A program made the position numbers. Of a stretch of 64,000 nucleotides of DNA, positions 9,001 to 12,000 are shown piece by piece; position 1 is the stretch's first letter, and every line of letters begins with the position of its first letter. The DNA comes from Pseudomonadota bacterium (GTDB taxonomy: Bacteria; Pseudomonadota; Gammaproteobacteria; JAIEPX01). The stretch covers positions 7,704 through 71,703 of the forward strand of contig JAKORL010000146.1 of NCBI GenBank assembly GCA_029777855.1, written 5' to 3'.

Positions 9001-12000
9001 ATTTTTGAGTTTAAGGCTTTAAGCAGATAAGAAAATAATTCTGCTCGTTTTACGTCTTGGTTTTTAGGATCTTCTGTGGCGCGCCATAAACACAGAGATC
9101 TCATATAATTGTGGTGACCTCTTTGATAGCTGGTGTAGTGTGGATTAACACCTAGCTCAAATAGCAATTTAATATGCTGGTAAGAATATTTTCCAGGCTG
9201 TTCTAATACACCACATAAAGATTCTCCCAAAGCGACGGCTCTTTTTTCAGGAGGAGCGGCAGATAATATGGTTAGTAAACTTTGAGTGTCAGTGTTTCTG
9301 CCTGCTTCATAATAAATTATTTGAGGAACCTCAAAAAAAGAGGTCAGAAATTGTAAGCTCAAGAGTCGATCATCGTGGGAGCTTTCACAGTACATGGCCG
9401 ATCTAAAAACATCGTCGATATGGTGTTGATTAAATTGATATCCATTAATTTGAGCAAAAGAGCATAACGCGATCAAATGTTCAGTACTTTCGTAAAACGC
9501 ATATCTCAAAAGACTCTGATTAGTCTTTGCATTAACAGCGTTTAAAGCCTCTTCAGACGTGATGGGTTTGAGCATGGCTTCAATTGAGGTCTTTGTTTTT
9601 GAGTTTAATTTGGGGCCTATGATTTCTAAATATTGCTGCCCAACCGTACCTTTGGTTTCTTGTACTTCTAACATAGATATGCTCCGAATGTGATGTAAAC
9701 TTACAATAGTAAATGCTTGTAATTTATGAATATATCACGAAAGCTGTCAGGGATCAAGCCTATTTTTGGATGTTCTAGTTGCTGTTGTTGATACCAATTG
9801 CAGGGGTTGCGCGATTTATCGGGGAGTGATTATTTTTCTGATAATTTCAGGGCAAGCTCATACAGCTCATTTTTCTTTTTTCCGGTAATTTTTGAGCAAA
9901 GACTTGCGGCTTGTTTTGTGTGTAATTCAGATAAAAGAATGAGTAAGATTTTTTCGACTTCTTGATCTGATGTTGTCGTTTCAATTTCTGTTCCGGCCAC
10001 TATAACGACAAATTCACCGAGTTGTTGTTCTGGATTTTCTTTTGTCCATTCTAATAATGTACTGATATTGTCTTGGCGAATTGTTTCAAATTGTTTGGTT
10101 AATTCTCGGGCAATTGTAGCAAGTCGATCCGGGCCAAAAACAGACAATAAATCTGTGAGCATATCAATGATGCGGTGTGGAGATTCATAGAAAACAAGGC
10201 TTCTTTGTTCGATCAATAATTTCTCGAGTCGATTTAAACGAGCACTTTTTTTTGCTGGTAAAAATCCTTCAAAAATAAATCGATCAGTGGGCAATCCAGA
10301 AGCGCATAATGCTGTGATAGCTGCGCAAGCACCTGGAATAGGCGCTACGGGAATTTTTGCAGCATGAGCTGCATGAACGAGTGGATAACCCGGATCGCTT
10401 ATAAGAGGCGTGCCTGCGTCACTAATAATTCCAATCGATTTACCTTCTTCTAATTGTGCGATGAGTTGTTTAACGCGACCCGCTTCATTAAACGCGTGAA
10501 GGGATATCATGGGGGTGGAAATATTAAAATGTTGCAGCAACTTTTTGCTATGGCGAGTGTCTTCAGCGGCCACGAGGTCAACTTTCTTTAGCGTATTTAT
10601 AGCTCTGAATGTCATGTCTTCAAGATTCCCAATGGGAGTCGCAATGAGATACAGCGTGCCTTTTTTCATTTGTAGGTCCTCGGATTACAGTCTCCTGGGG
10701 GCTAAGCATTTCTGTGCTTAAACCCTTGGGTGATTATTGAAAGTTTAACCCATCTTGCTGCGCCCTGTAAAAGTTATACTTCATGTAACGAATATCGCTT
10801 GACATGCGATATTTGTTACATATAATATAACTATGAGTACTGAGAAAGATTCGAAATCGAGAACACTTGGCCCGATAAGTGCTAAATTCATTGATGCCCT
10901 GCGTAATCAGGGTAAAACTATTTTTACGCTTGCCGAGGCAATCCAAATCTATGGTGGGAGTAATCAACAAACGAGCAAATTTATAAGAGCACTCGTTATG
11001 CGGGGTGTTTTAGGTCATCTTGTGTCCGGTAAATATATAATTCAACAATCAGGATTAGAAGCTGCCCAAAGTACTAATTGGCCAATAATTGCTAGAGAGC
11101 TGGCTGACGAACGTGATTACTTTATTTCACATTACAGTGCTATGCGTTTACATGGGATGACGACACACCCATTAATTCACGTTTATCTTACTGTACCTAA
11201 AAGAGTGCGGCCAAAAACTGTGTTTGGAATATCCTATCATTTCATATTTTCACATTCCGAAATATTTTGGGGTGTAAAAAGTCAATGGGTTTCAAAGCAT
11301 GAAAAAGTTATGGTAAGTGATATTGAACGTACAATTCTTGATGGATTAGATAGACCAGATCTCTGTGGCGGACTAAAAGACGTGCTGCTTGGAATTTGGG
11401 CCGTACAGAAAGAAGTTGATTGGGAAAAACTACTTCAGTATGCAATAAAATACAAATCAATTGCAGTGGTGAAGCGTTTGGGATTTATTCTTGAAATTCT
11501 AGATCTCCAGAAAAGCCTCATCAAGGATATTAATTTGATCGCGGTTAAAAGTAAAAGCTATGTTTTATTGGATCCTACAGGAGTACGAGTAGGAAAGCAC
11601 ATGCGTCGCTGGTATATTCAGGTGAACATTGATATTAACGAACTAAAAAGGAGTGTTTGGGGATGATTCCAATAACAGAAATTGATTCAATAGCATAATT
11701 CTATAATTTGATGATATTATTCTGCTCAGGCATAGGTGGCCGTCAGGGAAGTTTACTATTTAGAGAGAGATCATCATGAGACGATTAAGTTTGATGGGTT
11801 TTTGTTTGGTTCTTTGCAGTCAGCTTTTGGCGTGCTCGGGTGTTGATTTGCCGTTTATGGGGAAGGGTTCCAGTGCGGAGGGGGCTGCTGCGCCTGTGCA
11901 GGAAAGAAATGCGCCTAAAAAGATCGTTATGTTGTTGCCATTACAAGGTAAGTATGGTGAGAGTGGGCAGGCGGTGAAGAATGGTTTTATGGCGGCTTTT

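Follow-up and report, generated by a model that had tools for sequence, protein, structure and literature searches.

Why an antitoxin gene is kept once its toxin has gone is an old question, and a testable case of it is provided by an AbiEi-type gene, abiEi, which lies without a toxin partner between rsmI and lpoA in a 64,000 nucleotide stretch of DNA from an uncultured gammaproteobacterium (Pseudomonadota bacterium, assembly GCA_029777855.1, contig JAKORL010000146.1, positions 7,704 to 71,703), here called the window. We regard it as likely, and hold with good confidence, that this orphan is the surviving antitoxin and repressor half of an AbiE operon whose toxin was deleted, and that it has been kept by selection. 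The object itself is ordinary, since the AbiE family of toxin-antitoxin and abortive-infection systems has been studied well and antitoxins without a partner are common; it stands out for how clearly the decay can be followed at this locus and because selection after the loss of the toxin could be measured.

The initial annotation of the window, made from the sequence alone, had placed an AbiEi-type gene of 834 bp between rsmI and lpoA, and this was borne out by the open reading frame (ORF) call, by Pfam and PADLOC and by the predicted fold (Table 1). The 277 amino acid (aa) protein scored 30.3 bits against Pfam AbiEi_1, above the cut-off of 22.2, and matched the PADLOC AbiEi model PDLC02267 with an E-value of 3.9e-69 over profile positions 3–249 of 252. 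Its score against the NCBIfam equivalog NF047376 was 15.8 bits, where 150 bits are required; this model represents an AbiEi subfamily other than that of the orphan. Alignment with 25 relatives revealed that the orphan retains 42 of the 42 family-invariant residues. An AlphaFold2 model of the protein (predicted local distance difference test, pLDDT, 80; predicted template modelling score, pTM, 0.70) was compared with the PDB by Foldseek, and the sole matches at E < 1e-3 were 6Y8Q and 1ZEL, both with a probability of 1.00, whereas a profile search of the PDB by sequence returned only a marginal helix-turn-helix match. Its sequence, its predicted fold and the architecture of its putative operator all place the orphan in the AbiEi family (COG5340; Pfam AbiEi_1/AbiEi_4). 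Two antisense ORFs in this region, of 78 aa (10734–10970) and 50 aa (11308–11460), were taken to arise only because the sense sequence is conserved, and Rfam gave no match at E ≤ 0.1 between 9500 and 13200.

LpoA is an activator of PBP1A. In E. coli K-12 the rsmI and lpoA genes are adjacent and divergent with 64 nt between them, and in L093, a more distant relative that has no abiEi (LpoA 68% identical), the spacer is 128 nt long and carries no trace of the module. The view of this spacer as conserved and divergent, also taken from the initial annotation, was confirmed.

Table 1. Coordinates of the features described in the window
Feature	Position	Strand	Description
abiEi	10833–11666	+	834-nt ORF, 277 aa; full-length AbiEi antitoxin
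rsmI, 16S rRNA C1402 2'-O-methyltransferase	9830–10669	-	TIGR00096 E 2e-90; Pfam TP_methylase and RsmI_C; left flank, divergent from abiEi
lpoA/LppC-family penicillin-binding-protein activator, short 395-aa form	11776–12963	+	Pfam LppC E 3e-80; right flank
sigma-70 promoter	10799–10826	+	TTGACA (10799–10804), 16 nt, TATAAT (10821–10826); consensus 12/12
Putative AbiEi operator	10772–10832		61-nt palindrome, arms 10772–10801 and 10803–10832, 83% complementary
abiEii 5' stub	11663–11698	+	ATG overlaps abiEi stop (ATGA); 11 codons, then TAA; reads MIPITEIDSIA
Deletion junction TCAATAGCA	11687–11695		9-nt microhomology; two BLAST segments overlap here
Native lpoA upstream region, retained	11699–11775	+	Homologous to lpoA-proximal sequence of L087, L002 and L091
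Separate intact abiE operon, other subfamily	4255–5851	-	AbiEi 5851 or 5848 to 5039; AbiEii 5076/5049–4255
Palindrome of second abiE operon	5847–5891		20-nt arms, 80% complementary, over second abiEi start codon

Toxin stub and decay series at the rsmI-lpoA slot

The relatives with which the locus was compared were metagenome or Logan assemblies throughout. In L087, whose AbiEi shares 84% amino acid identity with that of the window, the order of genes is rsmI, abiEi, abiEii encoding an intact AbiEii of 276 aa, a convergent DUF4917 gene and lpoA. The L087 AbiEii begins MIPITEIYSRAEHF and was recognised by PADLOC as PDLC02304 (E 3.6e-53), and the DUF4917 gene was recognised as the phage-defence candidate PDC-S21 (E 6.6e-45). 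An alignment of the window with L087 showed 83% nucleotide identity between 10613 and 11695, passing through the abiEii stub, and restarted at 11687. The gap in the window corresponds to L087 positions 1103–3660, a section of 2558 nt (2.56 kb) that holds abiEii and DUF4917, and at the junction, where the L087 flanks read TCAAGAGCA and TCCATAGCA, codons 9–11 of abiEii are fused to a site ~100 nt upstream of lpoA. The codons of the stub (ATG ATT CCA ATA ACA GAA ATT GAT TCA ATA GCA TAA) were compared with intact toxin N-termini, which start MIPITEIYSRA in L087 and MGMIPITEINAA in L024; the toxin N-terminus is conserved in the subfamily as MIP(L/I)xEI(N)..A....VPAETIEKDY. The alignment indicates that one deletion of 2558 nt, across the 9-nt microhomology, took DUF4917 and left no more than 11 codons of abiEii.

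Both 11500–11900 and the whole window were translated in six frames and searched with a profile built on 54 AbiEii partner proteins, and the only match was the unrelated intact AbiEii at 4255–5076; the stub was established by DNA alignment because 11 codons are too short for this profile. The initial annotation had stated that no AbiEii toxin follows abiEi, a claim that a degraded AbiEii immediately downstream would contradict. The toxin gene is indeed absent, but a degraded AbiEii is present in minimal form, as the 11-codon stub that overlaps the abiEi stop. In a complete AbiE system a DUF1814/AbiEii nucleotidyltransferase gene lies downstream, and in the window this position is taken by the stub only. 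Without the toxin gene that defines such a system, the locus is an incomplete AbiE system and would not count as one of defence.

Other lesions were found at the same slot in further relatives. In L088 and L089 (AbiEi 78% amino acid identity) a 1-nt deletion cuts AbiEii to ~138–140 aa, and homology runs on past it. In L002 (= L007; AbiEi 77%) only abiEii is gone (L087 ~1080–1942) and DUF4917 has been kept. The window, which is 100% identical to L095, and L001 (AbiEi 100% and 95%, respectively) lack L087 1103–3660 and have an identical stub and an identical junction. L091 (LpoA 88%) has no abiEi; all that it carries of the module is a decayed promoter with its palindrome, and it has more right-flank sequence than the window. 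The end points of the lesions differ, as L087 1080–1102 is present in the window and absent from L002, and by synonymous distance the closest sister of the window and L001 pair is L087, with its intact operon. Together these two observations indicate that the toxin was inactivated at least three times independently and that the whole module was lost once more. One slot in six genomes therefore holds the intact islet, three independent toxin losses, a complete loss with a promoter scar and an empty site.

The clade consists of uncultured gammaproteobacteria whose nearest named LpoA relatives are Coxiella-like. Its ancestor, the comparison indicates, gained in the spacer a three-gene islet of abiEi, abiEii and the convergent DUF4917/PDC-S21 gene. 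The initial annotation had proposed the insertion of an unpartnered regulator; instead, a small defence islet entered, and the solitary state of abiEi stems from the later 2.56-kb deletion, which in the lineage of the window removed DUF4917 and most of abiEii. The deletion left the abiEi ORF intact, as well as the consensus promoter and the palindrome over it, and the ORF was under purifying selection afterwards. An orphan antitoxin derives from an operon that was once paired where it lies, and such descent was found here in the alignment with L087.

The DUF4917 gene, which is on the - strand in both L087 (1939–3159) and L002 (7004–8026), diverges faster than abiEi (nucleotide identity of L002 to L087 is 63% for DUF4917 and ~77% for abiEi). 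A search for signs of a mobile element found neither a tRNA gene in 1–20000 of the window nor an integrase gene within the islet. An 'AGTTTAA' similarity of the left and right flanks was considered as a target-site duplication and was too weak to call.

Selection on abiEi after toxin loss

As the junction is identical in the window and L001, all divergence between the two post-dates the loss of the toxin. Over 277 codons their abiEi genes differ by 26 synonymous and 14 nonsynonymous substitutions, which corresponds to a synonymous divergence (dS) of 0.159, a nonsynonymous divergence (dN) of 0.022 and a dN/dS of 0.138. Under neutrality 78% of the differences are expected to be nonsynonymous, whereas 14 of 40 were observed (binomial test, p = 6e-9). 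The dN/dS of abiEi matches the values of 0.13–0.19 between paired and orphan lineages and is near those of its housekeeping neighbours in the same pair of genomes (rsmI 0.105, lpoA 0.068). All 14 replacements between the window and L001 are conservative, and abiEi contains neither frameshifts nor stops in any of the four orthologues that lack the toxin. These data indicate that the orphan has been under purifying selection since the deletion and that some function persists; they are a direct measure of an antitoxin that stays under purifying selection without its toxin. The gene has the intact and selectively maintained ORF of an orphan antitoxin and is not a pseudogene.

The same substitutions bear on the alternative that abiEi is a functionless relic, left by a recent deletion of the toxin and with its decay yet to come. 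A survey of 80 family loci in GTDB species representatives revealed an intact AbiEii ORF of ~270–280 aa in 54, which starts 4 or 10 nt ahead of the abiEi stop or a few nt beyond it; in the remaining loci the toxin was degraded (17), absent (5) or at a contig end (4). The toxin was thus not intact in 22 of the 76 assessable loci (~29%), which makes such relics common, and L091 shows complete loss as the final stage. Nevertheless, a gene without function would not be expected to show so few nonsynonymous changes at a dS of 0.16 since the shared deletion, only conservative replacements, no disrupted reading frames and an intact promoter and operator, and separate recent deletions in the window and L001 are unlikely because of the identical junction. 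We consider it very improbable that the gene is such a relic.

Another orphaned AbiEi (56% identical) was observed at 5828–6240 of L004/L009, adjoining a Fic-domain gene. There AbiEii has been reduced by an internal deletion to its N-terminal 33 aa and C-terminal 67 aa, in different frames.

When the two domains of AbiEi were compared between the window and L001, the C-terminal domain (CTD) was found to be at least as constrained (dN/dS 0.12) as the DNA-binding N-terminal domain (NTD; 0.17), and the CTD of the orphan keeps every family-invariant residue. This is consistent with trans-acting immunity or anti-addiction, whereby the CTD would neutralise AbiEii-type toxins from elsewhere in the genome or from mobile elements. 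The AbiEi CTD of S. agalactiae alone is enough for antitoxicity, while repression needs the full-length protein (PMC7319586); AbiEi neutralises AbiEii by inducing auto-phosphorylation of the toxin (bioRxiv 10.64898/2026.01.19.700257); and both orphan antitoxins and interference in trans have been described (PMC6504116). However, the window encodes no toxin of the cognate type, the neighbouring AbiEii being 25% identical to the lost type, IMG/VR viral contigs yielded no relative, and homologues on plasmids reach 37% identity at most. Additionally, a need for the full-length protein in cooperative binding to the operator would be expected to conserve the CTD as well. A role in trans is therefore put forward tentatively, and is on the whole doubtful.

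Promoter, palindrome and the second abiE operon

The -10 hexamer of the abiEi promoter ends 6 nt before the ATG, no Shine-Dalgarno sequence was found upstream, and the abiEi mRNA is probably leaderless. The palindrome is centred on A10802, the fourth base of the -35 hexamer, and its right end abuts the ATG, so that by sequence abiEi has the inverted repeats over its own promoter that are typical of the family; the palindrome is accordingly described as a putative operator. This 61-nt block was almost invariant in five orthologues whose neighbouring genes have a dS of 0.5–1.0, while synonymous sites and the spacer outside the block had diverged.

The same layout, with the -35 hexamer at -34 to -29, the -10 hexamer at -12 to -7, 6 nt and the ATG, was found at 25 family loci in unrelated contexts. 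These loci have TGTAAC...GTTACA in common as motifs of the outer arms, while the inner arms are locus-specific yet self-complementary. Complementarity of each locus's own arms was 73%, compared with 49% when partners were swapped (a value as high was reached in 0 of 2000 permutations), and each inner arm position was represented by 2–4 Watson-Crick pair types. The inner core of the paired locus L010 (53% protein identity) is the same as that of the window, AAATATCGCTTGACATGCGATATTT. Within the 64-kb window the operator half-site ATGTAACRAATATCGC was found only in its own two arms, with up to 3 mismatches allowed. Since the layout recurs and the arms covary across the subfamily, the palindrome belongs to the abiE module, and it behaves, as far as sequence comparison can tell, like a co-evolving operator of that module. 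This gives a well-defined predicted leaderless promoter-operator module for this AbiEi subfamily.

Window positions 10772–10835 and loci L008–L040 share a fixed arrangement of a palindrome on the -35, TATAAT, 6 nt and ATG. In the palindrome scar of L091 both hexamers are mutated (-35, TTGGCG; -10, TAGTAT), and at L091 5620–5680 the inner operator core ATATCGCTTG..GCGATATTTGTT is intact despite this.

In the proposed mechanism AbiEi would bind both arms of the palindrome over the -35 and -10 hexamers and so repress its own leaderless transcript. By analogy with characterised AbiEi proteins, the orphan probably still binds the palindrome and represses this transcript. We suggest, with lower confidence, that it has been retained for repressor lock-in and/or for neutralisation of AbiEii-type toxins in trans. 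For the first of these, the repressor would hold down a perfect-consensus promoter that has been terminator-free toward lpoA since the deletion; for the second, the CTD would act on AbiEii-type nucleotidyltransferase toxins from the sources given above.

It was also considered that AbiEi has been domesticated, either as a regulator of lpoA that throttles read-through, or as a regulator of the divergent rsmI promoter at the left arm, or both. The 109 nt that separate abiEi from lpoA hold no terminator-like site and lie downstream of a promoter with a full consensus match, and a promoter-like site on the - strand (10771–10742) abuts the palindrome. Purifying selection on abiEi, together with the mutated hexamers of L091, from which abiEi has gone, would fit such a role. 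However, the promoter-operator module is ancestral to the subfamily and occurs in unrelated contexts, so that it has no feature peculiar to lpoA or rsmI, and lpoA retains its own conserved upstream region. In L002 abiEi has been retained despite a convergent gene before lpoA, and the L091 pattern is one case that fits neutral decay equally well. Domestication of this kind is considered unlikely. An explanation that we think more improbable still is that the toxin-antitoxin repressor became locked in as a host regulator and was retained for setting the level of read-through into lpoA. The deletion would have left the leaderless, perfect-consensus abiEi promoter reading straight toward lpoA, and the repressor could then be lost only together with mutations that weaken the promoter, as in L091. 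If true, this lock-in would be a concrete route from a selfish defence module to the control of a cell-envelope gene.

Several observations weigh against the reading of abiEi as a surviving antitoxin and repressor kept by selection. The retention of abiEi in L002, where the convergent DUF4917 gene separates it from lpoA, weakens read-through as a reason, and the lack of a cognate-type toxin in the window, in which the sole other AbiEii is so distant, weakens neutralisation in trans. The loss of abiEi in L091 means that the gene is not essential. The selection test was made on a single genome pair with 40 substitutions. The frameshift in L088 and L089 could be an assembly error, although the same truncated product is seen in two samples.

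The window also encodes a second, intact abiE operon, whose AbiEi probably starts at ATG 5851 or 5848 rather than at TTG 6004. In the initial annotation the orphan was described as a paralogue of this protein (5039–6004) with a shared motif, and cross-regulation between the two was suggested. The two AbiEi proteins are homologous and KRLGFILE aligns with QRLGWILD, but they are distant, with 21% identity (BLASTP E 8e-8). Cross-regulation, in which the orphan would serve as a second antitoxin or regulator of the 4255–5851 operon, is not supported. Apart from the homology, the inner 8-mer GAATATCG is present in both operators (5872–5879 and 10790–10797); as it has 8 copies in the window where 2.5 are expected, its sharing says little. 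The recognition-helix residues of the two proteins differ. The half-site is unique to the orphan's own promoter and was absent upstream of the second operon even at 3 mismatches, the palindrome of that operon differs in sequence and spacing, and its AbiEii is, as noted, only a quarter identical to the lost cognate type. AbiEi and Rv2827c do not bind each other's promoters (PMC7319586). We regard cross-regulation as extremely improbable.

The region from a DUF188 gene to rsmI (window 1–9700) is highly plastic among L001, L002, L088, L091 and L093. In the window it contains the second abiE operon, a rhodanese gene and a gene for an ankyrin-repeat protein of 1040 aa; in L001 the ankyrin protein is missing and an ATPase_2/AAA_16 gene is found, and L091, L088 and L093 have PEP carboxylase. 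After lpoA, where E. coli has yraN-diaA-dolP, the window has an ORF of 2198 aa (13395–19991, + strand), whose counterpart in L002 is 2194 aa long.

Comparison with known AbiE systems and orphan antitoxins

Within the PADLOC AbiE subfamily of PDLC02267 and PDLC02304, the window protein fits the first model and the L087 toxin the second, and the system in the window is incomplete. The AbiEi proteins of S. agalactiae and M. tuberculosis (Rv2827c) repress their own operons via inverted repeats that overlap the promoter (PMC7319586). The abiE system of S. agalactiae is a toxin-antitoxin system of type IV, for which type VII has recently been proposed, and its AbiEi (6Y8Q) is the top structural match of the orphan. 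Both genes lie directly upstream of a toxin gene, of which a stub is left in the case of the orphan, with overlapping stop and start, and in both the promoter is covered by inverted repeats. They differ in that the two proteins share 18% identity over the structural alignment, the orphan has no toxin partner and its mRNA is apparently leaderless. The arms of the orphan's palindrome are ~30 nt long, 1 nt apart and placed on the -35 hexamer, whereas the repeats of S. agalactiae are 23 bp long and 3 bp apart.

The best fold overlap was with Rv2827c (1ZEL; template modelling, TM, score 0.61), a protein of 293 aa compared with 277 aa for the orphan. The inverted repeats through which Rv2827c represses its own operon straddle the promoter, and the putative operator of the orphan likewise spans its promoter. 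Unlike the orphan, Rv2827c acts on four repeats with negative cooperativity and has a toxin partner, Rv2826c, and the two proteins share 10–12% identity.

In orphan antitoxins such as those catalogued by TASmania the antitoxin has also been kept after loss of the toxin, for which interference in trans or anti-addiction has been put forward as an explanation. Unlike these catalogued orphans, the abiEi described here has a decay path whose single lesions can be followed at one chromosomal slot across six related genomes, and the selection acting on it after the toxin was lost has been measured.

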